This document shows, one piece after another, positions 3,467 to 40,450 of a stretch of 61,629 nucleotides of DNA. Origin of the DNA: a virus (lineage: Duplodnaviria; Caudoviricetes); the IMG/VR virus record IMGVR_UViG_3300043772_002642, positions 1-61,629 of that record; one strand, 5' to 3'. Both the position numbers and the translations under genes were made by a program. How positions within the stretch are numbered: position 1 is the first letter of the stretch; each line of letters begins with the position of its first letter. Under the pieces are notes generated by a model. That model saw nothing but the letters and a program-made list of their open reading frames with translations. It was not told the origin of the DNA and did no database searches.

Positions 3467-3616
3467 TAACTTGTAATCGAAACGGTGAAACCACACAAAA
3501 GTTAAGACGGTAAGATTGATGGACGGATTAAGTAATCACAGAAACAATCAAGGACTGTAAATATAGAGAAAGGGTTTCCTCAATTACAGGAAAGTGGCCC
3601 TACAGACCACTACTAC

Positions 3617-3693
3617 GCGGAGGTAGTTTAATTATTAGAACACAACACATTCCTGTGTTGAAGTGGCAGTGAAAATCTGATTCTTCCGCTCCA
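3617..3693 (+). tRNA. Degenerate tRNA-Gly(UCC)-like element
   Basis: Acceptor GCGGAGG/CTTCCGC plus TCCA; D stem GTTT/GAAC; anticodon arm CAACA-CATTCCTG-TGTTG (8-nt loop). Lacks D-loop GG and T-loop TTC. Confidence 0.6.
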
Positions 3694-3696
3694 AAT

Positions 3697-3770
3697 GCGA
3701 GGGTAGTATAAATTAGTATACTGTGTATTTCCTATACAGAGGCGGGGTTAGTAACCACCCTCTCGCTCTA
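3697..3770 (+). tRNA. Degenerate tRNA-Gly(UCC)-like element
   Basis: Acceptor GCGAGGG/CTCTCGC plus TCTA; D stem GTAT/ATAC; loop TTTCCTA. Weak T arm (TTAGTAA loop); no D-loop GG. Confidence 0.5.
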
Positions 3771-3970
3771 ATGGTGTTAGTTATTCACCAACGTGACTAT
3801 CAGGCCGATGGTCACCATAACAAAAATCCTCTGTCACCGAGTGGTGTTGACCGTTGACTTACGTACAGTCCTTTTTTACGGGTTTTTTACGATCAAAAAA
3901 ATTCATCGGCCAACAGCTGTTAGAGACCTGACCTTTAGTTTGATTTATCACTCTTTTGGTCAGGTTTTTT

Positions 3971-5098
3971 TTAAAATTCAAAGGGATTTATGAGAAAATT
4001 AATTGGATTTCCATCATCATCGACAAAAATAAACTCTTCTGCCCAATATTTACCGTTATTTTCTGTTTGAGAAAAATTATAAAGTTCTTGTTCCGATAAT
4101 TCAGGACCTATATTCCATCTACCATTTTGACGTACATTGATTGTACGTTTAATCCATTTTGTAATTTCGATGTAAGAAGTTTTTTTACCAAAAGATTCTA
4201 AAGTGTCAGGATAATAATCATTGTCTTCTAAAAAATATGCTATCTTGTTGAATCTTCTATCCCCAACCTCAACAGGTGGGTTAAACATTATATATTTAAC
4301 ATCTTCCAATCTAACAGGTTTTCTTGGGTTATCTCTCATTAGTTGATAGTGAAAAGGTTCTGTTACCAAATTTTCAGCCCAACCAAAATCATCCTCAGAT
4401 TCATTTAATGGTGGACTTAAGTGGTAACCATTGTTACCAATTGGTCGCCAATATTTTTCATTAACTAAATTTAAAGCATCTTTATATTTGATAGTATCGA
4501 TATTACCATAATGACAACGTGGTTGTGTTGGGTTAAAATCTTTGGGATTGTATGAAATACCTTGGTTATTACAGTGTTTATATTCTACTTTAAAGTCACC
4601 ATTTCTTTCATAGATTTTGGTAACAAAAAATATATAACGAACATTTTCTGGTCTATAATCAATTGGATGTTCTATACCAACACCGAAATTTGTATCTACA
4701 ATATAAAAAACATCCCCAACTTTAATTGGATCTTCATTAATAATCTCGTTAGCCCAACCAAAATCATCTTTTTCAGATTCAGATAACCTATTACCGGTAT
4801 CGTCAATACCACAAAAATCTTTTTCTAAAAAGGCTTTCTTTGGAAAATAAACTTCTGGGTAATGGTCATCAAGTTTAATTATATAACAATCTATTCCTGT
4901 AAAAATTTCTTCACCAACAATTTCATAACAACCTAACCAACTACACCTAGATTTAAAAATACCTTCATCCTGTCGGTGAACAGGGTTTTTAATGTAAAAA
5001 GGTTTTCCATTTACTATAACCTTTAGTCCTACTTCACCTTGGTCAGGTAACCAATCAAATTCCGATTCTTTTAATATTTTATTAATAATATTTCTCAC
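3971..5098 (-). CDS. Leader-tagged three-module putative polyprotein
   Basis: MRNIINKILKE-SEFDW; internal LSE-SEKDDFGW and LNE-SEDDFGW. AATATTTAT upstream; GTG start. Confidence 0.8.
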   Translation of the reverse strand: MRNIINKILKESEFDWLPDQGEVGLKVIVNGKPFYIKNPVHRQDEGIFKSRCSWLGCYEIVGEEIFTGIDCYIIKLDDHYPEVYFPKKAFLEKDFCGIDDTGNRLSESEKDDFGWANEIINEDPIKVGDVFYIVDTNFGVGIEHPIDYRPENVRYIFFVTKIYERNGDFKVEYKHCNNQGISYNPKDFNPTQPRCHYGNIDTIKYKDALNLVNEKYWRPIGNNGYHLSPPLNESEDDFGWAENLVTEPFHYQLMRDNPRKPVRLEDVKYIMFNPPVEVGDRRFNKIAYFLEDNDYYPDTLESFGKKTSYIEITKWIKRTINVRQNGRWNIGPELSEQELYNFSQTENNGKYWAEEFIFVDDDGNPINFLINPFEF

Positions 5099-5127
5099 TT
5101 TTTAATAAATATTCGTATATTTGTATT

Positions 5128-5631
5128 GTGACAGCCAATAATCAAAATATAACAATCAAAGGTAAAATCGTTTTTGACGTGCCCAACGTTACCCGTAAGC
5201 ACAACCGTCAAGCCGATTGGAAACGTATTGCTATGGTTGTATTTGATGATGAAATGCCTGAATATTATTCTTGGTTTATCAAACGTAGATATAACATAAC
5301 TTTAAATAAACCTTTACGTGGTGCTCACATTACCTTTATTAATGACTCTGTTCGAGAAATTAAAGGTGGTGATAAAGTATGGGAACAAGTTAGAGAAAAA
5401 TGGGATAATCAAGAAATTGAAGTTACCTTGAATGTTGATGTACGTACCAATGTGGAATATTGGTGGTTAAGAGCAAGTTCTAACACTTTCGATGAAGTTA
5501 GAACCGAACTTGGTTTGGGTGAGCCTTATTTTAGTTACCACATGACCGTTGGTTTTCCAAATGAACGTAACATTGAACAATCTGAATATATTCATAATTT
5601 AATACTTAAATTTGGTGAGGAGTATAATTGA
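5128..5631 (+). CDS. 2H phosphoesterase family protein
   Basis: Two H-x-T motifs (AHITF, YHMTV) about 70 aa apart. TATATTTG lies 4 nt before the GTG start. Confidence 0.7.
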   Translation: MTANNQNITIKGKIVFDVPNVTRKHNRQADWKRIAMVVFDDEMPEYYSWFIKRRYNITLNKPLRGAHITFINDSVREIKGGDKVWEQVREKWDNQEIEVTLNVDVRTNVEYWWLRASSNTFDEVRTELGLGEPYFSYHMTVGFPNERNIEQSEYIHNLILKFGEEYN

Positions 5632-5662
5632 TTCCCTACTTTTTTTTGTATATTATTAATAA

Positions 5663-5974
5663 ATGAATGAAAATTATTTAAACCAATTATTTAACAGGGT
5701 TAGTTGGGATTTTGTTGCATCAGGTTCAACAATTAATTACCCAATGTGGACATCAACTGTTACAACTTTTAACAAAAAAGAAGTTTCTTTTATTAAAAAA
5801 GAAATACCAAAATTTAATTTTGAAGAGTCTACTGTTGAATCCACTATGTCTGATGAAGAATTTACCAATTTTCAAAGCCAAGTTTTAAATTACCTACCAA
5901 ATTGGTTTAAAAATAGTTCTTACGGTATAATTTCAGATTCACCACAATACCATTTTTTTGACGAATTTTGTTAA
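5663..5974 (+). CDS. Hypothetical protein
   Basis: 103 aa ORF on the coding strand. Confidence 0.65.
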   Translation: MNENYLNQLFNRVSWDFVASGSTINYPMWTSTVTTFNKKEVSFIKKEIPKFNFEESTVESTMSDEEFTNFQSQVLNYLPNWFKNSSYGIISDSPQYHFFDEFC

Positions 5975-6025
5975 AAAAGACTTCAAGACTACAATATAAA
6001 TTATAAAATTGATATAATTGTTTTT

Positions 6026-6925
6026 ATGGGAAAAAAAGATTTAAAAGAACAAAATAAAGATTTAGAAATTCACGTCATTGACTTAATCAGAAAGTTTGAC
6101 CCTAGTGATACTGGTAAGTACACAAGTTTTTTAACTAAAATTTTAAAAGATAAAATTGGGGAAGAGGTTGATAGACCTAGAAAAGGTCGTCTAAGAATTG
6201 TAAATCTTCAAAACAACGTTAGGGCATTTAAAATCCCAACAGGTAAAAATGACTTAGAAGAAGTTTTAATTAATTATTTGACAGAATTTTATGGTAGAGA
6301 AAACATGGAAGCTTTATTTAGTTTCCATAAACACACAAAAGAAAATAGAATTATAGGTAAAGATATCAATTCTTATAAATCATGGGATGATTTACAAAGA
6401 GAAGTTGCGTTAGCAACATTAAAACAAAATCAAAAATTACTTGAAAAAGAAGTTCAAAAAATTGTTGAAGACGATGAATGGTTGGTTGTTAGACCTTTAA
6501 CCGTAGAATCATCTTTGACCTATGGAGCTGGTACAAAATGGTGTACCGCTTCAAGACACAATAAAGAATATTTTTATCGTTATTCAAGAAACGGTGTTTT
6601 ATGTTATGTTATAAATAAAAATGATGGTGATAAATACGGTTTGTTTTATGATATGGAAAGTAATGAATTTAGTATTTGGAACGCTCCAGATAAAAGAATT
6701 GACTCAATTGAATCAGCGATACCTTCCGATTTAATGTCTAAGCTTTATAAATTCATGAAAAGTGATAAACCTAATTATGAATATTTTTCGGAATCGGAAA
6801 AACATAAGTGTGACGAATATCTTCAGTTGAATATGGTGGAGCCTGTTTACGCTGAACCAATGCCAGACAATGAATATAACAGTGATGAAGATGATGTAGA
6901 AGAAGAAACAATACAAAGAAGTTAA
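6026..6925 (+). CDS. DPSGNNKYL / SCxYG..WC paralog family protein 2 (no leader tag)
   Basis: DPSDTGKYT, KDINSY, WLVVRPLTVESSLTYGAGTKWC. Confidence 0.85.
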   Translation: MGKKDLKEQNKDLEIHVIDLIRKFDPSDTGKYTSFLTKILKDKIGEEVDRPRKGRLRIVNLQNNVRAFKIPTGKNDLEEVLINYLTEFYGRENMEALFSFHKHTKENRIIGKDINSYKSWDDLQREVALATLKQNQKLLEKEVQKIVEDDEWLVVRPLTVESSLTYGAGTKWCTASRHNKEYFYRYSRNGVLCYVINKNDGDKYGLFYDMESNEFSIWNAPDKRIDSIESAIPSDLMSKLYKFMKSDKPNYEYFSESEKHKCDEYLQLNMVEPVYAEPMPDNEYNSDEDDVEEETIQRS

Positions 6926-6926
6926 G

Positions 6927-7127
6927 ATGATAAAAAAAGGAGTATATAGAGACAACAAAGTTTATACAAATGAACCAAAGGTTTATGATGTTGAACGTAC
7001 AATGGATTGGTGGCCAAACAGTAATCAAGAAGTTGGGTTTGAATTAGTGGGTGATAAAGCTATTATAAAATCTTTAGGTAAAACATTAAAACCTGAAGAC
7101 GCTAACAAATATATTGGAAGTTTTTAA
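6927..7127 (+). CDS. Hypothetical protein
   Basis: 66 aa ORF abutting the upstream gene. Confidence 0.6.
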   Translation: MIKKGVYRDNKVYTNEPKVYDVERTMDWWPNSNQEVGFELVGDKAIIKSLGKTLKPEDANKYIGSF

Positions 7128-7131
7128 GTGT

Positions 7132-7350
7132 ATGTCAAAGAAAAAAACCATAAAAAGTTTAATAGATGAATTTTACGTACTAGAGTCAAAAAACACGTTA
7201 GAAGAAATAATTCAATCGATATTGGATGATGTAAGTTTATCTAACGAAGGTAAAATCAATTTTATTAAACTTAAACTACAAATGGATAAGGCTAATAAAG
7301 AAATTATTAAATTATTAGAAGATGAATTAGTTAAAGAAGACCCTGAGTAA
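7132..7350 (+). CDS. Hypothetical protein
   Basis: Likely start MSKKK at 7132; followed by a terminator. Confidence 0.6.
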   Translation: MSKKKTIKSLIDEFYVLESKNTLEEIIQSILDDVSLSNEGKINFIKLKLQMDKANKEIIKLLEDELVKEDPE

Positions 7351-7362
7351 TCAGGGTTTTTT
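7340..7362 (+). terminator. Intrinsic terminator
   Basis: ACCCTGA-GTAA-TCAGGGT followed by a T-run. Confidence 0.75.
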
Positions 7363-7387
7363 GTTTTTATTGGATATTTATTTAAAG

Positions 7388-8716
7388 ATGAATAGTATCC
7401 GTAAAATTACTCGTAAAACCTTATTAAATGAAGTTGCAGGAATCTCCTTTATTGTACGTAAATGGGCTGATATCTTAGAAAAAGAAGTTAAAGAACAGAT
7501 GGCTGCTCACAGGGAAACTGAGATGAAAAAAATACAAAGTGAACCTAAAGAGAAACCAAAAAAACCACAAACTTCATTTGATTTTCCTGAAGATGATAAG
7601 AAAAATGATCCTTTTTATTGGGAAGATGAGTCGGGTTATGGTTCGGGTAGTAAATATAAACGTGATGATGACTATTTTAGTTCTTGGAAAAAAGATAAAA
7701 GATATAGTGATTGGAAAGAACGTGAAGGTGGGTATTATAAAAAAAGATATAAATCTGACGACAATTATGGATATGGTGGAAGAAGTTATGGAAGTTATTC
7801 CTACACACCAAGTCCTCAAATACCACCACTACAAGAAGTTATAGTTATGGGTGAAAAATACCCTGAAGAATACAAAGAATTTTCTGTTGACAAATGGGTT
7901 ATGAAAAGTAGTAATCGTATTGAGTATGACCATCGGTATTCTGGGTATGATGAAGAAGGTAAATACGTTGTTTACCTCAATATACCAATTGCTTCAATGA
8001 GTAAAGGGGCTTTCATACATGAGATTAAACACGCTTATGATGATTGGAATCGTATGAGTCATGGTGGTAAACCTATCCGTGATAGTTGGGAAATTAAAAA
8101 TATATACACCCCTGATTTTGAAAAGTTAGTATTGGGAGGTAGTTTAGGATATCCACAACTTGGTTCATTAATTCGTAATTTTTATTTAGGTTCTAGTTTA
8201 GAAACTCCAGCTTATCTAGAAAATGAATATGATGGTGCTGGTGTTGGTTACCAAGAAATTGGTAGAAAACTAAAAAACTTTAAAATAGATAGTTATTTTA
8301 ATAAACAAGGTGAACCTGCTAAGGGACTTGAGGAAGAATTTGAGGAAATGAAAAAACTCGACATTCCTTTGTTTAAGAAATTTAATAACGTAACCGATTT
8401 TTTAAATTGGGTTAAGAAGTATTTTAACAAAAGAGGTGAGGACATTTTTAAACGTGTTATTAAAATGAAATATGTACACGGTAAACCTTTAGACCCTTTT
8501 GAACCAAAACCATATAAACCAGTTTATACTGGAACTTACCAACCAAAGACACAAACTAAAACTAAAAAAGAATTACCAAAAGAAGATGACCCTTGGGCTG
8601 ATTTTGAAGAAGGTGAAACTATGGGTGATTGGAAGTATTCTAAACAACGTGGTTGGTATTATGTGGGTGAAGACGATGATGATGAATACAACGCAAGAAA
8701 CTATTATAATTACTAA
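7388..8716 (+). CDS. Leader-tagged HExxH (zincin-like) metallopeptidase-domain protein 1
   Basis: MNSIRKITRKTLLNE-VAGISF; HEIKH with downstream LETPAY. GATATTTAT just upstream of ATG 7388. Confidence 0.75.
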   Translation: MNSIRKITRKTLLNEVAGISFIVRKWADILEKEVKEQMAAHRETEMKKIQSEPKEKPKKPQTSFDFPEDDKKNDPFYWEDESGYGSGSKYKRDDDYFSSWKKDKRYSDWKEREGGYYKKRYKSDDNYGYGGRSYGSYSYTPSPQIPPLQEVIVMGEKYPEEYKEFSVDKWVMKSSNRIEYDHRYSGYDEEGKYVVYLNIPIASMSKGAFIHEIKHAYDDWNRMSHGGKPIRDSWEIKNIYTPDFEKLVLGGSLGYPQLGSLIRNFYLGSSLETPAYLENEYDGAGVGYQEIGRKLKNFKIDSYFNKQGEPAKGLEEEFEEMKKLDIPLFKKFNNVTDFLNWVKKYFNKRGEDIFKRVIKMKYVHGKPLDPFEPKPYKPVYTGTYQPKTQTKTKKELPKEDDPWADFEEGETMGDWKYSKQRGWYYVGEDDDDEYNARNYYNY

Positions 8717-8745
8717 TTTAAATACTACCCCTATCACAAATAAAG

Positions 8746-8770
8746 ACCCCGATAACTATCGGGGTTTTTT
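8746..8770 (+). terminator. Intrinsic terminator
   Basis: ACCCCGATA-AC-TATCGGGGT followed by a T-run. Confidence 0.75.
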
Positions 8771-8802
8771 GTTGATGCTCATTTGTTGAGATATTTATTA
8801 TT

Positions 8803-10407
8803 ATGTTAACAAAATCAAAAATATATGTAATACTATCATCACTAATAATGTTAGTATTTTTTGTTGTAAAGACTTCTGTATTACTGGGGTATATTCCTTC
8901 TACATCTACCACTCGTGGTATAGAATACACTTGTTTTTTAACTTTTGTCCCAATTTTTATTTTTATGATGAAAGAATATTCGTCAAATAAAAATAGTGAA
9001 CTTATTAATGAGTTAAAAGAATTTGATAGGTTTGTTGATCGTTCTGTTTTAGTTAGTAGAGCTGACGCTAAAGGTAAAATAACCTATGTAAATAAAAAAT
9101 TCCAAGAAGTTTCAGGTTGGTCTTTGGATGAAGCTGTTGGCAAAGACCATAACATAGTAAACTCTGGTTATCACCCTAAAGAATTTTGGGCTGAAATGTA
9201 TAGGGTAACAGTTAAAGAAAGAGATATATGGAATGCCGTTTGTACCAACAGAAATAAAAAAGGTGAGTTATATTGGGTTGATTCTTATATTAAAGCAGAT
9301 TTTGATAAAAATGGTAAACTTAAAGGATTTATGTCTATCAGATATGATGTTACAGAGCTTAAGAAAAAAGAAGTAGAGATTCGTAATAGAATGAATGCGA
9401 TAAATAAATCTAATGCGGTTATTGAGTTTGATTTAAAAGGAAATGTTATTTTTGTTAATAATTTATTTATGGAAACTATGGGATATTCTTCACAAGATGA
9501 AATAATTGGGAAGCATCATAGAATTTTTGTAGACGATGAATATGCAAAAAGTAACGATTACTCTTTTTTTTGGAAAAAATTAAATGACGGTGTATTATTC
9601 TCTGGTGAAATTACTAGAGTCAAAAAAGATGGGTCTTTAGTCTATTTACAAGCAACTTACAACCCTATTGTTGGTGTGGATGGAAAACTTTATCGTGTTA
9701 TGAAAATAGCTACCGACATTACCGATTCTCATGAACAAAAGAAAGAAATTGAAAAGAAAAATACGTATTTAGAACATGCCGCTAAAATATTAAGACATGA
9801 TATGCACTCAGGGATTAATACTTATATGCCAAGAGGACTTAGTTCATTAGAACGTAGATTAAAACCTGAAGATGTTGAGTCATTAAAAATAGACTCACCC
9901 CTTAAAATGATTAAAGAAGGTCTTAAACACTCACAAAAAGTTTATAAAGGTGTTTATGAGTTTACCAACCTTGTAAAAAAAGATGTTGTATTAAACAAAA
10001 CTGAATGTAATATAAAAAATATCCTTACCGATTATTTGTCATCAACTGCTTATATAAGTCAAGTAATATTAGAAGATAATTTACCGACGATTGAAGTTAA
10101 TGAGGCATTGTTTTGTACAGCAATTGATAATTTAATAAGAAATGGTTTAAAATATAATGACTCTGAAACAAAGTTTGTTAAAATATATCATGAAGAAGAT
10201 TTAATTTTAATACAAGATAATGGTAGAGGAATTACCCAAGAAGATTTTAATTATTTATCTAAACCGTATACAAGAAAAGAAGGTCAAAAAGAATCTGGAA
10301 CAGGTTTAGGATTAAATATTTGTGTTGCAATTTTAGAAGAACACGGGTTTAAGATTACGTGTGAAAAAAATAACATCGGCACCAAAATTATGATAAAAAT
10401 AAAATGA
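8803..10407 (+). CDS. Membrane PAS-PAS sensor histidine kinase
   Basis: Two N-terminal TM segments and two PAS/PAC domains (GKITYVNKKF..GKDHNI; GNVIFVNNLF..GKHHRIF). H-box RHDMHSG, N-box NLIRNGLKY, G1 DNGRG, G2 GTGLGL. Confidence 0.92.
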   Translation: MLTKSKIYVILSSLIMLVFFVVKTSVLLGYIPSTSTTRGIEYTCFLTFVPIFIFMMKEYSSNKNSELINELKEFDRFVDRSVLVSRADAKGKITYVNKKFQEVSGWSLDEAVGKDHNIVNSGYHPKEFWAEMYRVTVKERDIWNAVCTNRNKKGELYWVDSYIKADFDKNGKLKGFMSIRYDVTELKKKEVEIRNRMNAINKSNAVIEFDLKGNVIFVNNLFMETMGYSSQDEIIGKHHRIFVDDEYAKSNDYSFFWKKLNDGVLFSGEITRVKKDGSLVYLQATYNPIVGVDGKLYRVMKIATDITDSHEQKKEIEKKNTYLEHAAKILRHDMHSGINTYMPRGLSSLERRLKPEDVESLKIDSPLKMIKEGLKHSQKVYKGVYEFTNLVKKDVVLNKTECNIKNILTDYLSSTAYISQVILEDNLPTIEVNEALFCTAIDNLIRNGLKYNDSETKFVKIYHEEDLILIQDNGRGITQEDFNYLSKPYTRKEGQKESGTGLGLNICVAILEEHGFKITCEKNNIGTKIMIKIK

Positions 10408-11795
10408 AAAAAATATTTTTAATATTAGTTTTATTGTTTTTGTCTATTTCACTATTTTCCCAAAATAAAAACAGACAAAATATAAATGAGTCTACTTGGG
10501 ATCAAGGTGTACCTGTATTACCTGAAGATAATTACATCATGGGATTGATAGAACAACTTGGTGATTCAATAGCCGAATGGGACCATGTGACTAGTAAATC
10601 AAAAGCAAAAATATGTCGAGAGGTTGGTTTAGCATTTTATGATAGAGGTATTTACGATGCTGCCGATTGGTATTTAACCAAAGCGAAAAACTACAAAGAA
10701 GAAGCTAAAATAGAGTCTGCAAAACCAAAACCCACATCTTCGGACATAGAGAGTATGAAAGCCGACCAAAAATTTTTAGAAAATTTACCAAAATCTTATG
10801 ACAATATATCTAGGAAAGATATGAAAAAAATAGTTAAAGAAATTGAAAACAAAATTAAAGAACTTATAAGACAGAGAGACTCTTTGTTAAGTGATACAAA
10901 TGTAAGTCAAGAAGTAGTTGATGCTAAAAACAATGTTATCGGTTCATTAAATAAAGAAAAAGATATAATTGATTTGAATATACAAAAAAGTGAATTAAAA
11001 GATAGAAATAAAATATTGTTTATAGATAAAGAAAATTATAAAAAATATTTGATATGGATTAGTATTTTTTCGGTTATACTAGGTCTAGGTATTCTAGCTT
11101 TGTTACAAAGAAAAACTATAAAAATAAAAGATGATGAAATTAATAAACAACTAGAGGATATTGGTAAGAAAAATACCTATTTGGAACATGCGGCCAGGAT
11201 AATACGTCATGATATGCATTCAGGTATAAACACCTATATGCCAAGAGGTATAAACTCTTTAGAAAAAAGATTATCATCCGATGATATAAAAAATTTAAAA
11301 ATAGAAGGTTCCATAAAAATGATAAAAGAAGGTTTGGAACACACTCAAAAAGTTTATAAAAGTGTCTATGAGTTTACCAATCTAGTTAAACGAGATGTTG
11401 TGTTAAACAAAACCAAATTTGATTTGAAAGAAATTTTAATAAAATATTTAAATAACACATCATACTCATCTCAAGTCAACATAGAATATTTAGGTGAAAG
11501 TGAAGTCAACGAACCTTTATTTTGTACCGCTCTAGATAATTTTATTAAAAACGGTTTAAAATATAATGTTAGTGAAAATAAATTAGTTAAAATTTATTTA
11601 GAAAAAAATTATCTAGTAATAGAAGATAACGGCAAAGGTATGACACAAAAACAATTTGAAAAATATTCTAAACCAAAAAATTTTGAGTCTGGTTTAGGTA
11701 TAAGTATATCTGTGGCGATATTAGAAGAACATGGTTTTCCGGTTTCCTGTGAAAAGAATAACATTGGAACTAAGATGAAAATAAAAATAAAATAA
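10404..11795 (+). CDS. Sensor histidine kinase with signal peptide and extracytoplasmic coiled-coil region
   Basis: Signal peptide and one TM. The kinase core is closely paralogous to the upstream HK (KNTYLEHAARIIRHDMHSGINTYMPRG; NFIKNGLKY; DNGKG; SGLG). Confidence 0.88.
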   Translation: MKKIFLILVLLFLSISLFSQNKNRQNINESTWDQGVPVLPEDNYIMGLIEQLGDSIAEWDHVTSKSKAKICREVGLAFYDRGIYDAADWYLTKAKNYKEEAKIESAKPKPTSSDIESMKADQKFLENLPKSYDNISRKDMKKIVKEIENKIKELIRQRDSLLSDTNVSQEVVDAKNNVIGSLNKEKDIIDLNIQKSELKDRNKILFIDKENYKKYLIWISIFSVILGLGILALLQRKTIKIKDDEINKQLEDIGKKNTYLEHAARIIRHDMHSGINTYMPRGINSLEKRLSSDDIKNLKIEGSIKMIKEGLEHTQKVYKSVYEFTNLVKRDVVLNKTKFDLKEILIKYLNNTSYSSQVNIEYLGESEVNEPLFCTALDNFIKNGLKYNVSENKLVKIYLEKNYLVIEDNGKGMTQKQFEKYSKPKNFESGLGISISVAILEEHGFPVSCEKNNIGTKMKIKIK

Positions 11796-11809
11796 ACAAA
11801 AAAGAAAAA

Positions 11810-32046: not shown

Positions 32047-32171
32047 TTAAATATGGATAAAAAATTATATAATTTAGCTGTAGGAATGTTTGTGGTGGTG
32101 TTAACACTATATATTGTTGCTGGTTTAATAAAATTATATGTTATGTTCAAATAATATAACGGAAAAAAGAT

Positions 32172-32381: not shown

Positions 32382-32410
32382 ATCAACAACACTAAACAAA
32401 CAAGACTAAT

Positions 32411-32596
32411 ATGTGGCATTATATAAAATACTTACTAAAGTTACTTACAGGATTTATGGTTATTTTAGCATTAGATACTATGCTTAAAAAAGTGGGTATT
32501 GATAAACAAGATGATTATTGGTGGCTTTATATAACATTAATATGTTACAATAGTTATTGTTATTTAGAATTTAGATTAGAAGATAAAGAAGAATAA
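32411..32596 (+). CDS. Small membrane protein
   Basis: Two hydrophobic segments. Confidence 0.6.
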   Translation: MWHYIKYLLKLLTGFMVILALDTMLKKVGIDKQDDYWWLYITLICYNSYCYLEFRLEDKEE

Positions 32597-32597
32597 A

Positions 32598-32993: not shown

Positions 32994-33062
32994 GTTACAC
33001 AGTAAGACACAAAGGTAAGATTTTACTAGTAATAAATTTATAAAAAATTGCTCAAATAAAAT

Positions 33063-33293
33063 ATGATTAAGAAAAACGAAGAACAATTTGATAGTGGTGG
33101 TATAATGCTTAAACATACCTTTCTATTAGGCTTTAATGATTTGGATATACCAACAGAAGATATCACGGAAGAAATGATTGATAACTATGTCAAAGAAAAA
33201 TCTCAAGAATTTGAATGGTCGTTTAAAGCCTTCCTGATGCTTAAGTTAGGTTATATTGGGATGAATGAAAATGGCAAATGGGTTAAAGAGTGA
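33063..33293 (+). CDS. Hypothetical protein
   Basis: 76 aa ORF. Confidence 0.65.
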   Translation: MIKKNEEQFDSGGIMLKHTFLLGFNDLDIPTEDITEEMIDNYVKEKSQEFEWSFKAFLMLKLGYIGMNENGKWVKE

Positions 33294-33305
33294 TATTTAT
33301 ATCAT

Positions 33306-33938
33306 ATGAGAAATCTAATCCGTAAAATATTAAGAGAAGAGTTAGACCCAAAAACAGGAACAGGAAAAAAACCAAAAGGTTCAGGAAGAAGATTATACAC
33401 AGATGAAAATCCTAGTGATACAGAAAACATACAAAGAATCAAACAAATGATAGGACTTGTTACTGAAACAAGACAAGGAATGTTTAATTGGTTAAAAGAA
33501 AAACTACCAAACACTCCTGAATATGTAATAAGAGATTGGGTTTATAAAATGATTAAACAATCAGATGATATAAACACATATGAAGGTATTACAGAATGGA
33601 TTGATGAGTGGGTTAAAGACGTGGAATGGGAGACTCAAAAAGATTTTCCAATATCAATGGAAATATTTACCGATAAAACAAAAAAAGAGTTAGAAAGTAG
33701 AATTGGGGGTGAAATAAGACAAGATGTTGGTAAAGATACTGAAAGACACGAAACACAAAAAGAGTTATTACAGAATAAGGGAATATCAGAAGAACCAATT
33801 ATCTTATTTAAAACCAAAGATGGTAAATATGAATTAGGTGAAGGGTGGCATAGAACGACACAAACATTCATTCAATTCCCTGACGGATTCATACAACCCA
33901 ATGTATATATAGGATTAAACGCAAAATGGTTAGATTAA
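33306..33938 (+). CDS. Leader-tagged chimeric protein with C-terminal ParB/Srx-like domain
   Basis: MRNLIRKILREE-LDPKTGTGKKPKGSGRRLYTDENPSDT fused to ENIQRIKQMIGLVTE; EPIIL..YELGEGWHR. Confidence 0.7.
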   Translation: MRNLIRKILREELDPKTGTGKKPKGSGRRLYTDENPSDTENIQRIKQMIGLVTETRQGMFNWLKEKLPNTPEYVIRDWVYKMIKQSDDINTYEGITEWIDEWVKDVEWETQKDFPISMEIFTDKTKKELESRIGGEIRQDVGKDTERHETQKELLQNKGISEEPIILFKTKDGKYELGEGWHRTTQTFIQFPDGFIQPNVYIGLNAKWLD

Positions 33939-33939
33939 T

Positions 33940-34062
33940 ATGAACCTACAAAACGCTAAAGACCCTGAGACAAAAAAAAGGTTAAAAAGAGCTTATGACT
34001 ATATAGAAAGTAGAAAAGAAGCTTCAAAGAAAAAAACTGAGAGGTTACGTGAGAAAAAATGA
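33940..34062 (+). CDS. Short ORF, probable chimeric remnant (not in ORF track)
   Basis: MNLQ-NAKDPETKKRLKRAYDYIESRKEASKKKTERLREKK*. Confidence 0.55.
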   Translation: MNLQNAKDPETKKRLKRAYDYIESRKEASKKKTERLREKK

Positions 34063-34634
34063 AACTTGACGTTAATTTAATACCTCACAGAGATTTTCAC
34101 AAAGGCTTTTGGTTACAAACAAAAGAAAGTCCTTGGTATTTCTTTTATCAAAAACCAAGAGAATATTTTTTACCCAAAGATAATTCTTTTTATCAAACTG
34201 TTGACGATTCTTTACTACCAATAGTAAAATTGTTACACAAAAACAATATCCCGACCACACCTTCTTGTTCAGGTCATATGATGCCAAAAAAACATTATGC
34301 TAATTTGTATAACAGTATAGAAGATGTTAAAGAATACATCAAAGGTGATGGTATTATATTACAAAACCCTGAAACTAGTAGAAAGTTTTTTTATCAAAAC
34401 AAAAATTATAATTTACCTTGGCAACAAGAAGAATTTGTTGAGTTAATGGATGATTATCAAAAAAAAGGTGTAATTGGATTTGTTGACAAAGATAATGTCT
34501 ATGAATCAATTAAAAATAAATTAAAATCAAGAAAAGAAGGTCCTGTAACTTTAATATTTTCAAAATCAGAAACACCTAGAGGGATTGATAAAAATTGGCA
34601 ATATGTTTATGAAATTTTAAAATCAAATTTGTAA
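34059..34634 (+). CDS. Hypothetical protein with TTxSCxGH motif
   Basis: VDDSLLPIVKLLHKNNIPTTPSCSGH, reminiscent of the TYW3-like T-x-SC-x-G motif. Confidence 0.65.
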   Translation: MKLDVNLIPHRDFHKGFWLQTKESPWYFFYQKPREYFLPKDNSFYQTVDDSLLPIVKLLHKNNIPTTPSCSGHMMPKKHYANLYNSIEDVKEYIKGDGIILQNPETSRKFFYQNKNYNLPWQQEEFVELMDDYQKKGVIGFVDKDNVYESIKNKLKSRKEGPVTLIFSKSETPRGIDKNWQYVYEILKSNL

Positions 34635-34661
34635 TCAGTTTTCAAAGTATATTTATATCAT

Positions 34662-35276
34662 ATGAGAAACCTAATCCGTAAAATATTAAAAGAAGCTTAT
34701 GATGCTGAACATGAGGAAAGAAAAAAATTAATTCCCGATGCAATAAAAATGGCACCAAATTGGACAGGTAGACCAAAAGAAATGTATCAAAGTGTTGAGC
34801 AAGCGGAGGAGATGGAAGATAAAGCTCACAAGAAAGCGGAAGGTAAAGGTGAGGCTAGAATATATAGTGCCATAAAAATGGCAAATTTAAATAAATACGG
34901 TATTAACTTTAGAGATAGTGAAATCTCAGTATCAACAGATGATAGCCAATCTTTATTTGGTGATAACGATGTCGATGCAGTCATCTCGGGTAAAGGTTAT
35001 TTAATGTCCTGTTATGATAGAGATGTTTCAACAAATAAAATAACATCATCGGATAGAAAACTACCCATAACTCCTTTAAACCCCAAAAAATCAAGATGGG
35101 ATGAATGTTTAACCAACTACAAAGATGTTAAATGGGATTTACTATTTTATAATCCAAAAAAATTCAGTGAAAAAGTTATAAGTCATTTGGCTAAGAAAAA
35201 AGGTTTAAAAACGGTTTCAATATGGGATGAAGACATACCACAGGTTATTAAAAACAGTAGATATATTTTTAAATAA
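34662..35276 (+). CDS. Leader-tagged hypothetical protein
   Basis: MRNLIRKILKE; TATATTTAT upstream. Confidence 0.8.
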   Translation: MRNLIRKILKEAYDAEHEERKKLIPDAIKMAPNWTGRPKEMYQSVEQAEEMEDKAHKKAEGKGEARIYSAIKMANLNKYGINFRDSEISVSTDDSQSLFGDNDVDAVISGKGYLMSCYDRDVSTNKITSSDRKLPITPLNPKKSRWDECLTNYKDVKWDLLFYNPKKFSEKVISHLAKKKGLKTVSIWDEDIPQVIKNSRYIFK

Positions 35277-35959
35277 TGAAAAATTTAATCAGGAAAATAT
35301 TAAAAGAAGAACTAAATACCAAACCTAATTTAAACATAGGTGATAAAGTTACAATAATAGCCAATAAAAAAATTGGCCCAATGAGATGGGATAGATATAA
35401 AGTTTCATATGTTGGTGTTACCTTCCAAAAAGATAAAGTAATAGATACTGACGCAACTTATTTGGGTGAATGTGACTACGAAGGTATTTTGGTTTTAAGT
35501 CAAGGTCATGAACGATGTTTTGAACCCGACGAAATTAATATTACAAAAAATACAAAGTTAAAAGAAAGTCTAAATGAAGCGGCGAACGCAACTTTTGTTA
35601 AAGATTTTTTGGTTGATTTTGGGACATTACTATCTCTTAATTTTAGTCAGATAACTAAAATGGGGAAAGATGAAAATGCGACCAATGAGTTAAAAGCTAT
35701 GATGGAAAGAATTAGAAAACCAATCATCAACGGCCAAACTTATTTTGAAATTATAAAAGACATAAACGCAATACCAAACAACCCCAAATTGTTATCAGCA
35801 ATTTTATCACAAGTTAAAAATTTTATTGAATATGTTGAACCGAGGGTTGAAAGATTTGTAAAAGATGGACCTGCACCTAATGGTGTTGACTATAAAAAAG
35901 GTTGGTTGGACAGGATTAAAAAAATTAAAGAGGATTATAAAAAGATTGTTACGCCGTGA
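35276..35959 (+). CDS. Leader-tagged two-module protein
   Basis: MKNLIRKILKEE; internal KLKESLNE-AA. Confidence 0.8.
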   Translation: MKNLIRKILKEELNTKPNLNIGDKVTIIANKKIGPMRWDRYKVSYVGVTFQKDKVIDTDATYLGECDYEGILVLSQGHERCFEPDEINITKNTKLKESLNEAANATFVKDFLVDFGTLLSLNFSQITKMGKDENATNELKAMMERIRKPIINGQTYFEIIKDINAIPNNPKLLSAILSQVKNFIEYVEPRVERFVKDGPAPNGVDYKKGWLDRIKKIKEDYKKIVTP

Positions 35960-36360
35960 AAAATTTAATCAGGAAAATATTAAAAGAAATTTATTCTCCC
36001 GCGGGGGAAGAATATATTCCTGGTAAGTTTGTGGTTCATAAATCAGCACCCGTTTGGCGAGAAAACATTGAAGTAACAGGATTAGAAGTATCAGTTGGTG
36101 ATTGTTATCAAAGTTATGTTGGTGGTGATGTAGATTGTAAAGAAGCAATATTTGCAACCGATTCAATGGAAGAAAAATATATGTTTGACTCAACTTATGA
36201 TGATGATACATGGTTAATTGATACTGAATGTGCTGGGGTTAAATGGTATAAAGATAGACATTTTGATTTTGGCGATTACAAATATCATATTGTAACATTT
36301 CAAAATATACCAGCCAACTGTTTAAAACTAATACACAAAGGTACAGGAAAAAGTTATTGA
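35956..36360 (+). CDS. Leader-tagged putative ADP-ribosyltransferase-fold protein
   Basis: MKNLIRKILKE; VVHKS..RENI..TGL..AIFAT..WLID..IPANCL, an ART/Tpt1-like pattern. Confidence 0.55.
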   Translation: MKNLIRKILKEIYSPAGEEYIPGKFVVHKSAPVWRENIEVTGLEVSVGDCYQSYVGGDVDCKEAIFATDSMEEKYMFDSTYDDDTWLIDTECAGVKWYKDRHFDFGDYKYHIVTFQNIPANCLKLIHKGTGKSY

Positions 36361-36845
36361 TGAAAAACCTAATTCGTAAAATATTAAAAGAAGAACTGGA
36401 ATCAATCAAAGGTACACCAATATATCATTTCACAACAGTTGATAATGCATTAAAGATATTGGAAAGTAACGAACTAAGAGGAACCTTACCATCAGGTGAA
36501 TATCTTAGTCTTGATAAAAGATTGGCAAATACAAAACATCAAATGACCATTTCATTTACTCGTGACAAAAACTTTAAAGGCGACCAATCATTGGCAGGCC
36601 AATCAAAACAACCTTTGGATGTAATCTTGGTACTGGACAGAAATAAATTAAAAACAAGATATAAACTAGAACCATTTAATTATAACTCAATCGATGACGA
36701 CGACTTTTACAAGACAAAAAATAAAGAACTGGAAGAAAGAGTTTTAAACCAAAAGATTTATCCTGTAAGCAATTATCTAATCGACATTATCTACAAAGGT
36801 AATAATCCTAAGATAAAAGAAATTTTAGAAAGATATAAACCCTGA
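36360..36845 (+). CDS. Leader-tagged putative ADP-ribosyltransferase-fold protein
   Basis: MKNLIRKILKEE; IYHFT..ILESNEL..ISFTRD..ELEER, an H-S-E ART-like triad. Confidence 0.6.
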   Translation: MKNLIRKILKEELESIKGTPIYHFTTVDNALKILESNELRGTLPSGEYLSLDKRLANTKHQMTISFTRDKNFKGDQSLAGQSKQPLDVILVLDRNKLKTRYKLEPFNYNSIDDDDFYKTKNKELEERVLNQKIYPVSNYLIDIIYKGNNPKIKEILERYKP

Positions 36846-36864
36846 GAAATACTCGGGGTTTTTT
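36838..36864 (+). terminator. Intrinsic terminator
   Basis: AACCCCTGAG-AAATA-CTCGGGGTT followed by T's. Confidence 0.75.
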
Positions 36865-36924
36865 ATTATTAGACGGTTTCCGGATATACTTTTCATTATC
36901 CACAGAAATTATTAAATTTATAAT

Positions 36925-37860
36925 ATGAACAATACCCAAATACCAATAGGTGAAAAATTCAACCTTCTAACCATACTTTCAATAGGTGAAAAAATAAAAA
37001 GTAGTACAACAGTAAATTGCCAATGTGATTGTGGTAACATTGCCCATAATGTATATTTACGCAATGTTCTTAATGGACACACCAAGTCCTGTGGTTGTTT
37101 AAAAAATAAATGGCCTAGAGAAAAAATAATAAGGGAATATATGAAACTATATGAAGAACACCCAAACATAACACTTAATAAAATGGTAGAATTAAATATG
37201 GGTGGACTATCTCAGGCTATTGTAAAAGTATTTGGCGGTATAACAGACCTAAGAACTTCATTAAATCAAAGTAATGATATTAAAAGAGGTGAGTCAAAAA
37301 AAAGACTAGATATTAAAATAGGTGATAAATTTAACAAACTAACAGTAATAGAAATATTACCCAACCATATAAAACCATCAGGACAAATAGCAAGAAGAAT
37401 TAGATGCGAATGTGATTGTGGTACAATAAAAGATTATCATCTACATGATGTTTTGAACGGTGTAAAATTTAAAAATATGGGTACAAAATCTTGCGGGTGC
37501 CATAATCGAAAAGCAAATGGCGATAGTTGGGATGCGGCAACAAATAGAGGCGATATTAGAGGCCGAAAAACAAAGACTAGTTATGAAAGCATGAAGAGAA
37601 GATGTTATAACGAAAAAAATCATAATTACCCTAATTACGGTGGTAGAGGAATTACTGTATGCGATAGGTGGTTGGAAAAACCTGATGGGTATAAAAATTT
37701 TAAAGAAGATATGGGCGAAAGACCTGAAGGTATGACATTGGATAGAATAAACCCAAACGGAAATTATGAACCAAGTAATTGTAGATGGGCAACAGATAAA
37801 GAACAAGCCAATAATAAGAGAAATAGTAAGAAAAAAGAAGATGTAATTCCACAGAAATGA
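36925..37860 (+). mobile_element. Free-standing HNH homing-endonuclease-like gene
   Basis: Two CxCDCG..KSCGC modules; [12 protein letters not shown]; [25 protein letters not shown]. Flanked by an imperfect direct repeat. Confidence 0.85.
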
Positions 37861-37873
37861 TTATATTTGTGAT

Positions 37874-38500
37874 ATGAAAATAATTAAGATTAAAGAAGAC
37901 CACTATGTAATAGTGGATGAAACAATACAACCTGTAAATGGCTGGTATTATGATAAATTTATTGAAAAGATTAGAAATACAAATGGTGCCGAATATAACA
38001 TTAGCTATCTAACATTACAAATCACCCACTCAACACAACCACTTGCCTCAATGAAAGAATTAATGGAAAAGGGTTATGACAACATTTTACCAATCAATAT
38101 AGATGAAATAAAAAAACTAATTGGTGAGGTGGATGTGGAGAAGAAGGCGAAAGAAGAATACAAAGATAACTTACACAATCCATTTTTTACTGCAGCGCCA
38201 ATGGGATATGTAAAAGGTTACAACCAAGCCCTTGAAGATAACAAGGAGAAAAAATATACAGAGGAGGATTTGTTAAAAGCTTATGAGTACGGAAGTAATG
38301 CTTTATTAGGTATATCTAAAATAAACCTAATCCAATCCCTCCAACCTAAAACAGAATGGAAATATGTGGGAGAGTGTAAGGGTAATAATGGTGATGGTTG
38401 TTTTATGGATAGTCCTGGTCATGATTGTGGTTGTTATAAGAGAGTTCCTAAAACAGGGTGGGAAGTGGAAATAATAGATGGTAAACTTAAACTGGTATGA
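37874..38500 (+). CDS. Hypothetical protein
   Basis: 208 aa; TATATTTG 4 nt before ATG. Confidence 0.75.
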   Translation: MKIIKIKEDHYVIVDETIQPVNGWYYDKFIEKIRNTNGAEYNISYLTLQITHSTQPLASMKELMEKGYDNILPINIDEIKKLIGEVDVEKKAKEEYKDNLHNPFFTAAPMGYVKGYNQALEDNKEKKYTEEDLLKAYEYGSNALLGISKINLIQSLQPKTEWKYVGECKGNNGDGCFMDSPGHDCGCYKRVPKTGWEVEIIDGKLKLV

Positions 38501-38721
38501 CAGACAATATAAGATATATTAAAACACAAGAAGAATGTAACCAATACATGGAAGAAGTTAGACTCAGGGGAAAGAGCTTTGAACCCAATCCAACAACCGT
38601 AAGCTTTGGTGATGAAGATGCATGGACCAATATGGAAGCATATGATTTTAAGAAGGAATATCTAAAGGTAGTAAAAGAAAATAATCATGAAACCATATAC
38701 AGAATAAAATATGAAAGATAA
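38497..38721 (+). CDS. Hypothetical protein
   Basis: Start overlaps the upstream stop. Confidence 0.65.
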   Translation: MTDNIRYIKTQEECNQYMEEVRLRGKSFEPNPTTVSFGDEDAWTNMEAYDFKKEYLKVVKENNHETIYRIKYER

Positions 38722-39004
38722 AGAATTAAAATTAGAAGACCTTGAAAAACTGTATGAAGAATTTAATCTTTTTCTAGAAGAGAAGAAATTTGAAGAAGAA
38801 TATAATAAACTATTAGAGTCAAGACCTATGTTATCGATTGATAAACATTCTAGCTATCATTTATTAGTTAGAGATATATTAATAGAGTTTTTAACACCAA
38901 AAGGTTATACAACATTAGACCCATTGTTAATGTCATTTATAATGGAGTTTGATAGATTATATTTTGGAAAGATGCAAGAAACATTTATACATTGTTATAG
39001 ATAA
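38711..39004 (+). CDS. Hypothetical protein
   Basis: Start overlaps the upstream gene. Confidence 0.65.
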   Translation: MKDKELKLEDLEKLYEEFNLFLEEKKFEEEYNKLLESRPMLSIDKHSSYHLLVRDILIEFLTPKGYTTLDPLLMSFIMEFDRLYFGKMQETFIHCYR

Positions 39005-39052
39005 ATAACTAAAAACAATATATAGGATAAAGTATTAGGATATTTATAGAAT

Positions 39053-39562
39053 ATGAAAAACCTAATTAAGAAAATATTGCAAGAAGAAAGAAATAACATT
39101 AGACTGGTAAAGGATGTTTACGAACCGTCATCACTGGAGAAGGAATTTAACATTAATTTAAATACCAATCGCTTTATGAAAGAAGATGAAACCATGTATC
39201 ATATCTTTGATAAGGATGAAAAGATAGGTTATCTAGTATTATCAACTGAAAAGTATAATGATTATAACTTTCAAGAATTATTAGGTGGCAACGTTGTCTA
39301 TCTTAATTTTATCAGAACTAATAAACAAGGCTTACTAAGAGATATTATAGAAGAACTTAAACAAGAATTAAAAAACACTTTTGATTTTATTGTTCTGGAA
39401 GTTGATGGACATGATTATAATATCTTTAAGGCTTTAAAACAAAAATATGAAAACGTTGGATTTATTGGCATAATGCCTGACAATGTTGGAGAATATGATT
39501 TGGGTTTGGCTCCCGAGATAGACCCATATGAGGAAGATGTTTTTATGTATACAAAGATATAA
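39053..39562 (+). CDS. Leader-tagged putative GNAT-fold protein
   Basis: MKNLIKKILQEE; KIGYLVL..YLNFI..IVLEV..LKQKYENVGF. GATATTTAT upstream. Confidence 0.55.
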   Translation: MKNLIKKILQEERNNIRLVKDVYEPSSLEKEFNINLNTNRFMKEDETMYHIFDKDEKIGYLVLSTEKYNDYNFQELLGGNVVYLNFIRTNKQGLLRDIIEELKQELKNTFDFIVLEVDGHDYNIFKALKQKYENVGFIGIMPDNVGEYDLGLAPEIDPYEEDVFMYTKI

Positions 39563-39586
39563 AGTAACTAAAAATAATATATAGAG

Positions 39587-39612
39587 AACCCTGAATAACA
39601 TCAGGGTTTTTT
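39587..39612 (+). terminator. Intrinsic terminator
   Basis: AACCCTGA-ATAACA-TCAGGGTT followed by T's. Confidence 0.75.
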
Positions 39613-39646
39613 ATGCCATATAAAATACAATTATTATATTTGTACT

Positions 39647-39835
39647 ATGATATTCAGAAAAGGAGACATATACAAAAATACCCATAGTGAGGGTCTTGTT
39701 TATATAACAGAAGTAAAGAATAACAAATATAAATTGGAATGGACAAGCCCTGATGGAACAAAGGTAGAGAAATGGTATATACATGAATTCTTATCCATGT
39801 GTGTTAATAAAGGCTTTATGAAATTTGTTTCTTAA
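39647..39835 (+). CDS. Hypothetical protein
   Basis: TATATTTG 4 nt before ATG. Confidence 0.65.
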   Translation: MIFRKGDIYKNTHSEGLVYITEVKNNKYKLEWTSPDGTKVEKWYIHEFLSMCVNKGFMKFVS

Positions 39836-40099
39836 CTACACTTTATTAGTACCTTAATTAACTAAATGTGTGGAAACGTGTATTCCGGTTAATAGGCAAC
39901 GCCCGCTGCCGATTGTATAAAAAACAACGATTTTACTGCCTTTGCCTATTGTAAAATAACAAGGGTGTGGAAAATAGTGGTAGAATGTGGTGAAAACACA
40001 ATAGGAAATGTTGTATAAAGCGTGGGCAAGCCAAAAGGGAACTGACCCCTTCGCGAGCCTTCCCCCAAAATTCCTGACAAAATAACATAAAAAATAAAG

Positions 40100-40450
40100 C
40101 CGACAATATAACAGGCCGAGAAAAACCAGTGTACCATAACCCACATAAAATGGGTAAGACAAACTGTCATGTTAGGAGCTACCATACAGAGGACAGTTGT
40201 CATAAAACCCAATGCCATTTTCATCACAGGTTGGCGGTGACGAGCTACGTCAGACCTGGTCGGTGAGGTAAAGACCGACAGTTGTTTAAAGCCACAACTT
40301 TGTGTTAAAGGCTCCTAACTCTATTACCTTGCTAAATCAGTTTTTATTATACAGTGGTACATTCGGTCTCTCGGTTTGGCTACGAGATATTATCATTCCA
40401 CTGTTACCGTCTTTTAGATCATCAATCTTTGTGCTGATGTCTTTTTCTCT
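40100..40450 (-). ncRNA. Large structured ncRNA candidate (RNA2), apparent homolog of RNA1
   Basis: TATCTTTG promoter on the minus strand (40455-40462) with no ATG after it. Stems ACAGTGG/CCACTGT and GTTAGGAGC/GCTCCTAAC plus several hairpins. Four motifs are shared in order with RNA1. 3' end uncertain. Confidence 0.65.

Follow-up and report, generated by a model that had tools for sequence, protein, structure and literature searches.

GOLLD is a large structured RNA, lake-derived and carried by phages, whose conserved domain and second domain are connected through a variable linker in which tRNAs may lie. ROOL is likewise large and ornate; it is found in phages and prophages, often near tRNA islands. 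Stable RNAs also occur in the tRNA region of phage T4, where RNAC and RNAD are transcribed with the tRNAs and have no known role (PMC3014915). Here we examine two regions, RNA1 and RNA2, of a 61,629-base stretch of viral DNA (the window) that constitutes the whole of IMG/VR record IMGVR_UViG_3300043772_002642. An earlier note on this DNA had described the two regions as homologous members of a family of large pseudoknotted RNAs. That account was borne out in part: in each region non-coding sequence is conserved and base-pair changes are compensatory, so that each stands as a real structured locus, but the shared family and the pseudoknots were not supported. We conclude with moderate confidence that the window carries two unrelated structured RNA loci, and that RNA1 is an operon of stable RNAs punctuated by tRNA-like units.

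We take the window to be a jumbo-phage fragment because CheckV estimates its completeness at only 23%, and the source is a lake-water jumbo phage with, probably, a Bacteroidota host. The metagenome runs that carry RNA1 nearly word for word are from lake water, and once possible source runs were excluded, 88-96% of the sampled RNA1 words were present in six runs from six studies. The G+C content of the window is 30%, and the RNA1 and RNA2 regions stand out as G+C-rich at 40-41%. A related IMG/VR record, G001 (105 kb, 33% complete), carries orthologs of both regions. Searches of RNA1 and RNA2 with blastn against 50,697 phage records gave no match, and no published description of either was found in the main texts of literature outside subscription journals.

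RNA1 contains two covarying RNA domains

RNA1 occupies positions 3468-3972 on the plus strand, and its ortholog in G001 is 88% identical. A metagenome scan based on alignment of the neighboring 375-aa protein yielded 13 loci, and nhmmer located RNA1 adjoining the gene in 13 of 13. The association persists at protein identities down to 43-44%, with one small open reading frame (ORF) separating RNA1 from the gene in L113 and L117. The family comprises approximately five lineages: the window and G001 (with the identical L108-L110); L113 and L117 with L111, L112, L115 and L116; L114; L119; and L120; L118 is partial. In the window, the modules follow one promoter-like site, no terminator lies between them, and one terminator closes the locus. 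An A-run and a TAATATTAA core are found upstream of every family member, and the promoter-like motif in the window presumably acts as a promoter. The earlier note was right that such motifs precede both RNA1 and RNA2.

We built covariance models of the RNA1 5' domain (R1) and 3' domain (R2). In the 5' domain, helices P1 (UUGUAAU/AUUACAG) and P1b (GAAACC/GGGUUUC) are followed by a large conserved internal loop and then by P2, P3 and P4. Read directly from the alignment, P1b becomes GAGACC/GGUCUC in L119 and L120. All 12 sources whose contig reaches the 5' domain scored 139-174 bits with R1, and 98.5% of cells were paired in a model-based alignment of ten distinct sequences. Both sides had changed in 7 of 26 pairs, compared to 0-2 in slid controls (pair partners moved by 1-3 columns), and the covariation score was reached by none of 500 shuffles. 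The 3' domain scored 134-169 bits with R2 in 10 of 15 sources; there, 96.3% of cells were paired, with double-sided changes at 13 of 28 pairs versus 1-5 in slid controls. Its loop C(A/U)GGCCG is invariant in seven of seven members, and a second invariant GGCC lies further downstream. The terminator-like stem at the end of the locus covaries in L113 and L117; a simple terminator scanner missed this hairpin because its loop is long. Identity to G001 is 94% in the 5' domain and 96% in the 3' domain, as against 82-84% in the flanking genes and 78% in the tRNA-like stretch between the domains.

We assign RNA1 to the plus strand because covarying helices contain G-U cells in that sense, the predicted energy is lower, the tRNA match lies on that strand, and the promoter and terminator are oriented accordingly. 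On the plus strand, the 5' domain has 27 G-U cells among 298 and 4 broken cells, and the consensus energy is -20.3 versus -13.0 on the reverse strand. Minimum-free-energy z-scores were modest and did not separate the strands (-2.6/-2.2 for RNA1 and -1.7/-3.0 for RNA2). The strands originally named, plus for RNA1 and minus for RNA2, are supported. The regions had also been called ORF-free, which holds only in a loose sense, since ORFs of 66, 93 and 102 aa can be called mechanically across them. None is kept as a reading frame: the 102-aa ORF of G001 corresponds to two separate frames in the window, and indels of 1-2 bases occur in the alignment of the RNA1 family.

R1 and R2 searches over 40 records identified only G001, leaving 39 further related records in which RNA1 was not found, of which three are at least 90% complete; two weak R1 rows among the 40 (E of 0.003 and 0.009 per record) were taken as chance. 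An invariant 18-mer of the 5' domain retrieved only G001 from the IMG/VR viral collection. The same 18-mer had 28 matches in GTDB genomes, about the number expected by chance according to our estimate, and the match that scores highest with R1 (27 bits) falls within coding-looking sequence. Only G001 was recovered when 80 viral loci collected through their SPFH gene were searched by nhmmer with RNA1, RNA2 and the conserved extension past RNA2.

tRNA-like units lie between the domains

The stretch between the two domains consists of one tRNA-like unit in L118, L119 and L120 and of two in the window, G001 and L113. Like tRNA (RF00005), the units have a cloverleaf form with covarying acceptor, D and "anticodon" stems, and they are set directly between RNA modules. 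Across nine units (one row is five bases short), 10 of 18 predicted pairs had changed on both sides. The CAUUCCUG loop is invariant, and it can be drawn either as an 8-nt loop or, with two extra pairs, as a 7-bp stem capped by UUCC. Every RNA1 member has at least one unit with CAUUCCUG, and the stem beneath this loop in unit 1 carries two compensatory changes relative to G001. The units also retain G1-C72, C2-G71, G3-C70, U73 and a UCC in the loop, all of which we take to be tRNA-Gly identity elements, and some encode CCA after U73.

The units differ from tRNA in having an 8-nt or UUCC loop and irregular D and T loops, and they lack the canonical form of a 5-bp anticodon stem, a 7-nt loop with U33 and purine 37, and regular D and T loops. 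U33 is absent when the loop closes to the UUCC tetraloop. Scores with the Rfam tRNA model were at or just above the cut-off of 29 bits, at 29.3 bits for unit 1 of the window and 39.4 bits for the L119 unit; the other units were unreported at E<=0.1.

RNA1 is modular

The 3' domain is missing from 5 of the 15 sources (L111, L112, L114, L115 and L116). All five retain R1 together with the tRNA-like unit or units, after which the neighboring gene follows directly. L117, which is otherwise near-identical to L113, carries a GIY-YIG/NUMOD3 homing-endonuclease gene between unit 1 and unit 2 (1955-2581, minus strand), with a hairpin and T-run before the gene and a promoter-like site after it. Throughout the family, each conserved domain abuts a tRNA-like unit. 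Because the 3' domain is dispensable and the two halves of L117 are split by a gene, we consider that RNA1 is not one large pseudoknotted RNA; these arrangements indicate a modular locus rather than a single fold. L114 matches the L117 sequence just after unit 1 and lacks everything downstream, an arrangement that points to loss of the 3' domain through rearrangements linked to the endonuclease. The tRNA cluster of T4 likewise holds a GIY-YIG homing endonuclease, SegB, a situation similar to that of the gene in L117.

The long-range pairings that had been proposed as pseudoknots decay without compensation in relatives. The RNA1 pairing 3550-3559/3864-3873 falls from 10 of 10 pairs in the window to 7, 9, 9, 6 and 6; ATAGAG/CUCUGU is complete (6/6) in four members and drops to 5/6 and 3/6 in others; GUAA/UUAC has no pairs (0/4) in two members; and only a GGCC core of 3803-3810/3904-3911 persists. 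In RNA2, ATAGAG/CUCUGU and UUAGGAGC/GCUCCUAA fall to 3/6 and 5/8 in G001, and UUAGGAGCC pairs locally instead, with compensation. The local helices that compete with the long-range pairings do covary: ACGGU/ACUGU becomes AUGGU/ACCAU in G001, and a local GACU/AGUC hairpin becomes AACU/AGUU, GGUUA/UGACC or UGGUA/UACCA in relatives.

Sequences resembling RNA1 in metatranscriptomes

Three metatranscriptome runs from three studies each contain one contig of 176-360 nt that is 90-99% like the window from 3449 or 3490 to 3632 and then continues past the 5' domain into L113-type unit 1 sequence. These contigs weakly hint that the RNA1 of relatives is present in RNA. Coverage of the flanking genes in the three runs amounts to a single 34-nt piece, which we count as no evidence, and run X14 is probably DNA.

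RNA2 is conserved in a single relative

The one RNA2 ortholog that we found is in G001, with 73% identity over 611 bases; long stretches of perfect identity are interrupted by variable hairpins and by an insertion of 36 bases. A 20-mer of RNA2 also identified only G001. Of 121 predicted pairs, 10 had changed on both sides compared to 0-1 in slid controls, a count drawn from only two sequences, the same two from which the structure was predicted. The hairpin at 40277-40261 has all four of its stem pairs exchanged but keeps its loop, CUUUACCUC. The promoter motif upstream, which we take to be a Bacteroidota promoter consensus, recurs as a 34-38-nt element (80-88% alike) in eight related records, often twice. 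When RNA2 was compared by blastn with 39 related records, only this motif matched, together with two short chance pieces.

The 3' end of RNA2 is uncertain because the T-run at 40097-40089 is not kept in G001 and conserved non-coding sequence runs on to about 39845. RNA2 would be a separate RNA of approximately 340 nt, possibly as long as 600 nt; the extension at 39845-40089 may be part of it, a separate element, or sequence read from the other strand. Within the extension, the GTGG-rich words TGTGGAAA, GTGGTAGAA and GTGGTGAAA (plus strand) repeat at 39850-40000, and these could be protein-binding sites.

RNA1 and RNA2 are not demonstrably related

The case for a single family began with eight short words that RNA1 and RNA2 have in common, in the same order. 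The words are indeed where the earlier note placed them: AAGACGGTAA at 3504-3513 and 40413-40404, ATAGAG at 3563-3568 and 40324-40319, and TCCTCTGT at 3827-3834 and 40193-40186, as well as TGACCGTTGACTTAC, TGACAGTTTGTCTTAC, both self-complementary pairs in RNA1, and TTAGGAGC and GCTCCTAA in RNA2. One detail required correction, in that the spacer between AT(A/G)ACAA and TCCTCTGT is three bases rather than four. In addition, each region is G+C-rich and preceded by a promoter-like motif, and a combined pattern with 19 specified bases occurs only at these two sites in the window, where shuffles of the window lead one to expect none. This last test is circular, however, because the pattern was written from those two sequences. 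In 2.9 million viral contigs, the combined pattern was found at seven loci, namely the RNA1 of G001, three tRNA-Asn loci and three unrelated coding-looking sites.

Unbiased comparisons place the similarity of RNA1 and RNA2 at chance level. Against 500 dinucleotide shuffles of RNA2, the Smith-Waterman score was 193 (183.5 +/- 21.7 in the shuffles, reached by 152), the colinear chain of shared 6-mers was 69 (57.8 +/- 8.6, reached by 59), and the longest common word was 10 (reached by 97). RNA1 gives a longer chain, 75, with the reverse complement of RNA2. The shared motifs do not line up in a direct MAFFT alignment of the two regions, and blastn of RNA1 against its own record returned nothing in RNA2 at E<=10. 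Run unfiltered over the whole window, R1 and R2 produced 36 and 29 rows at E<=10, of which none falls in 40085-40455, and in G001 they matched the RNA1 ortholog alone and not the RNA2 ortholog. Moreover, ATAGAG and CTCTGT are lost in the RNA2 ortholog, CTTAC and GGGTT are lost within the RNA1 family, and the promoters of the two loci differ in type. Because the shuffle tests are at chance and R1 and R2 give no cross-match, we do not regard RNA1 and RNA2 as homologs, and it is very unlikely that they are diverged members of one large pseudoknotted RNA family. The window thus provides no grounds for grouping the two as homologous giant RNAs of one family.

Comparison with known RNA classes

We searched Rfam 15 (4227 models) over the window at gathering threshold and permissively, at E<=10, over 3300-4100 and 39750-40550. 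At gathering threshold, the only matches in the whole window were three tRNAs at 45739-46401. The permissive scans of RNA1 and RNA2 gave only the borderline tRNA match in RNA1 noted above and chance-level rows, and a scan of the RNA1 loci of six relatives at E<=0.1 gave a single tRNA match. The earlier statement that neither region matches tmRNA, RNase P or group I/II introns therefore stands. Matches to OLE, raiA, HEARO and the Rfam ribozymes and riboswitches were likewise absent from RNA1 and RNA2. ROOL gave no match in the Rfam-wide scans, the presence of its model in that Rfam copy being unconfirmed. Several further candidates were set aside: a hammerhead (its core has different letters, and Rfam gave no match), a T-box, a TnpB/IscB guide RNA (no such protein is encoded close by), and an intron separating the two minus-strand genes (both begin and end with start and stop codons of their own, and no intron model matched).

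For GOLLD (RF02032, counted at 150 bits or more), there was no match at E<=10 in RNA1 or RNA2 and none at E<=1 in the window record or G001. As a positive control, true GOLLD was recovered in 16 of 41 related records at 279-335 bits, and in 15 of these 16 an SPFH/Band-7 gene follows downstream on the same strand, at a distance of 92-4553 nt. G002 (L029 3300-4950) has a 1.6-kb gene-free island upstream of SPFH that holds a tRNA and a 327-bit GOLLD; the RNA2-type promoter motif recurs several times in this island, with further short promoter-led transcripts. RNA2 lies just downstream of SPFH in the window, a position taken by ordinary genes in relatives (10 of 80 loci inspected). In the window, a profile of GOLLD upstream regions from relatives matches the RNA2 promoter alone (E 0.033) and not the RNA2 body. 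RNA2 therefore shares a promoter type and neighborhood with GOLLD without being GOLLD.

RNA1 has the two domains and variable linker of GOLLD, a resemblance of design only, whereas RNA2 does not have this layout. The conserved part of GOLLD is 416 nt, in contrast to RNA1 domains of approximately 150 nt each, one of which is dispensable. RNA1 has no sequence relation to RNAC and RNAD of T4, and it differs from the T4 arrangement in that its tRNAs are non-canonical and the flanking RNAs are the best conserved parts.

A proposed tRNA-punctuated operon and its alternatives

Building on these observations, we infer that RNA1 is transcribed, processed and released as separate RNAs that have some function. 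The transcript would run from the promoter through a 5' RNA of approximately 148 nt, one or two cloverleaves of non-canonical form that resemble tRNA-Gly(UCC), and a 3' RNA of approximately 150 nt to an intrinsic terminator. The tRNA-like units would serve as punctuation: cleavage by host RNase P at the 5' end of each unit, and by RNase Z or E at its 3' end, would set free the structured RNA on either side, along with the tRNA-like pieces themselves, each as a stable molecule of its own. Such processing would parallel that of RNAC and RNAD from the T4 tRNA cluster. In T4 this type of processing has been demonstrated; for RNA1 it is a proposal. A tRNA-like processing signal, mascRNA, also occurs at the 3' end of MALAT1. 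Transcription of RNA2 would start from a strong promoter of Bacteroidota type, and the long-range helix would close the RNA.

Several observations count against the operon. ARAGORN found no tRNA gene in the window or in the loci of eight relatives, the D loops of the units lack GG, and most T loops or arms are irregular or degenerate; the units are poor tRNAs and candidate substrates for RNase P and RNase Z. The word AACGGU of the 5' domain can pair with ACCGUU of the 3' domain, both words are near-invariant (6/6 paired in five of six members), and the two domains may make contact through them. The covariation counts rest on few events because there are only about five distinct lineages, and the association of the gene with the RNA can be read in one direction only, because all RNA1 loci were reached through the 375-aa gene. 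Finally, the metatranscriptome contigs show neither ends nor strand nor processing sites, and their unbroken run from the 5' domain into unit 1 represents either an unprocessed form or DNA.

The possible contact between the domains favors an alternative in which RNA1 is one large GOLLD-type RNA with tRNA-like units in its linker, perhaps self-assembling through the palindromic GGCC loop and standing in for GOLLD. The domain-linker-domain layout parallels the published description of GOLLD, the C(A/U)GGCCG loop and downstream GGCC are invariant, and GOLLD is present in so many related records and in neither the window nor G001. That absence may be a matter of incomplete sampling, because at 23% and 33% completeness GOLLD may lie off both fragments. 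Neither region matches GOLLD or ROOL at E<=10, neither R1 nor R2 has a match in the 16 records that carry GOLLD, and the RNA1 domains are far shorter than the conserved part of GOLLD. A single RNA also sits poorly with the loss of the 3' domain in a third of the sources and with the terminator-like and promoter-like sites around the gene that splits L117, and we consider it unlikely. Another reading makes the tRNA-like units the functional product, with the 5' and 3' domains as leader and trailer controlling maturation; the units might be non-canonical tRNA-Gly(UCC) variants that are charged and serve in translation, possibly with an expanded anticodon loop, that take part in a non-ribosomal reaction, or that act as decoys for host anticodon nucleases. 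In its favor, the units keep G1-C72, C2-G71, G3-C70, U73 and the loop UCC, some encode CCA, a CAUUCCUG unit is found in all members, and a gene with a weak 2H phosphoesterase match lies nearby. However, the flanking domains are better conserved than the units (94-96% versus 78%), the loop is of 8 nt or UUCC with U33 absent in the latter register, the D loops lack GG and most T loops are irregular, and every unit is rejected by ARAGORN. We judge this account improbable.

It is very unlikely that the main role of one region, or of both, is played at the DNA level, as might be the case for a replication origin, a packaging site or an array of protein-binding sites, with the hairpins incidental. 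The GTGG-rich repeats of the RNA2 extension lie between convergent genes, and neither strand stands out in the free-energy z-scores, which are modest. Against a DNA role, compensatory changes preserve pairing as the sequence changes, the G-U pairs in covarying helices suit one strand only, the tRNA model finds matches, and the promoter and terminator orientations agree. The tRNA-punctuated operon remains the reading that we favor for RNA1.

Neighboring genes and further sites

The features of the two loci are collected in the table below. The 375-aa protein gene lies beside RNA1 in every locus fetched. Its product belongs to no Pfam, NCBIfam or PHROG family, and its AlphaFold model (mean pLDDT 57.8) had no Foldseek match at E<=0.001. 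Among the homologs P0001-P0032 (252-601 aa), only the C-terminal 130 or so residues are conserved, and a partial homolog, 92% identical, lies on a 298,845-bp contig. Two genes from RNA1, a 167-aa gene has a weak match to 2H phosphoesterases (E 0.004, below the Pfam cut-off) and also to phrog_12204; the 2H phosphoesterase class acts on RNA ends.

The SPFH gene lies next to RNA2, and the 18 SPFH homologs aligned here all start with the five residues MFDKL. Approximately 4.5-5.2 kb from this gene lie the three Rfam tRNA matches of the window, which score 42.1, 33.7 and 39.9 bits and have good acceptor, D and T arms; they contain inserts of 33-68 nt in the anticodon-arm position, and ARAGORN reports none of them. 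In three unrelated viral contigs (L020, L021 and L026), a sigma-70-like promoter precedes a G+C-rich leader of approximately 240 nt that runs directly into tRNA-Asn, which may be another leader-plus-tRNA RNA locus.

Features of RNA1, RNA2 and their surroundings in the window
Feature	Position	Strand	Basis or remark
Promoter-like motif of RNA1, TTGACA-17 bases-TAATAT	3438-3466	+	Motif scan; identical in G001
RNA1 5' domain, 148 nt: rod of helices P1, P1b, P2, P3 and P4, plus hairpin P5	3468-3615	+	R1 model, covariation
tRNA-like unit 1	3617-3690	+	tRNA model, 29.3 bits
tRNA-like unit 2; loop UAUUUCCUA in window, CAUUCCUG in relatives	3697-3767	+	Cloverleaf; compensatory changes relative to G001
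RNA1 3' domain, ~150 nt: four covarying hairpins, invariant loop C(A/U)GGCCG, conserved joiners	3770-3920	+	R2 model
Terminator-like hairpin CCTGACC ... GGTCAGG, then T-run	3927-3972	+	Read from sequence; kept in G001
Gene for 375-aa protein	3971-5098	-	Adjoins RNA1
Gene for 167-aa protein	5128-5631	+	Weak 2H phosphoesterase match
Conserved non-coding extension past RNA2: GGGAA/TTCCC hairpin, GGCAGCGGGCGTTGCC hairpin, repeated GTGG-rich words	39845-40089	-	Blocks conserved with G001
RNA2 body	40090-40449	-	One ortholog (G001); consensus fold
RNA2 5' hairpin	40442-40416	-	Consensus fold
RNA2 long-range helix, 18 pairs	40374-40355 with 40136-40116	-	Consensus fold
RNA2 compensated hairpins (three)	40319-40284, 40277-40261, 40252-40238	-	Changes relative to G001
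RNA2 promoter, TTTG-20 bases-TAtcTTTG	40455-40486	-	Motif shared with relatives
SPFH gene	40703-41206	-	
Three tRNA matches	45739-46401	+	Rfam tRNA model

Significance for GOLLD-type RNAs

RNA1 is a compact, well-covarying locus in phages closely related to many GOLLD carriers. Its natural deletion series, in which the 3' domain is present or absent, the units number one or two, and an endonuclease gene splits the locus, is well suited to testing which parts cooperate. A bolder proposal, which we advance tentatively and at low probability, is that RNA1 is an undescribed class of phage RNA, with two domains of approximately 150 nt on tRNA-like adaptors, that takes the role of GOLLD in a clade of lake jumbo phages whose sequenced fragments are free of GOLLD. 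In that role it might self-assemble through its palindromic GGCC loop, or its UUCC loops might be shown to a host or phage partner. GOLLD and ROOL are RNAs whose shapes are known but whose function is not, and if the proposal is true, comparison of RNA1 with GOLLD would provide a handle on GOLLD function.

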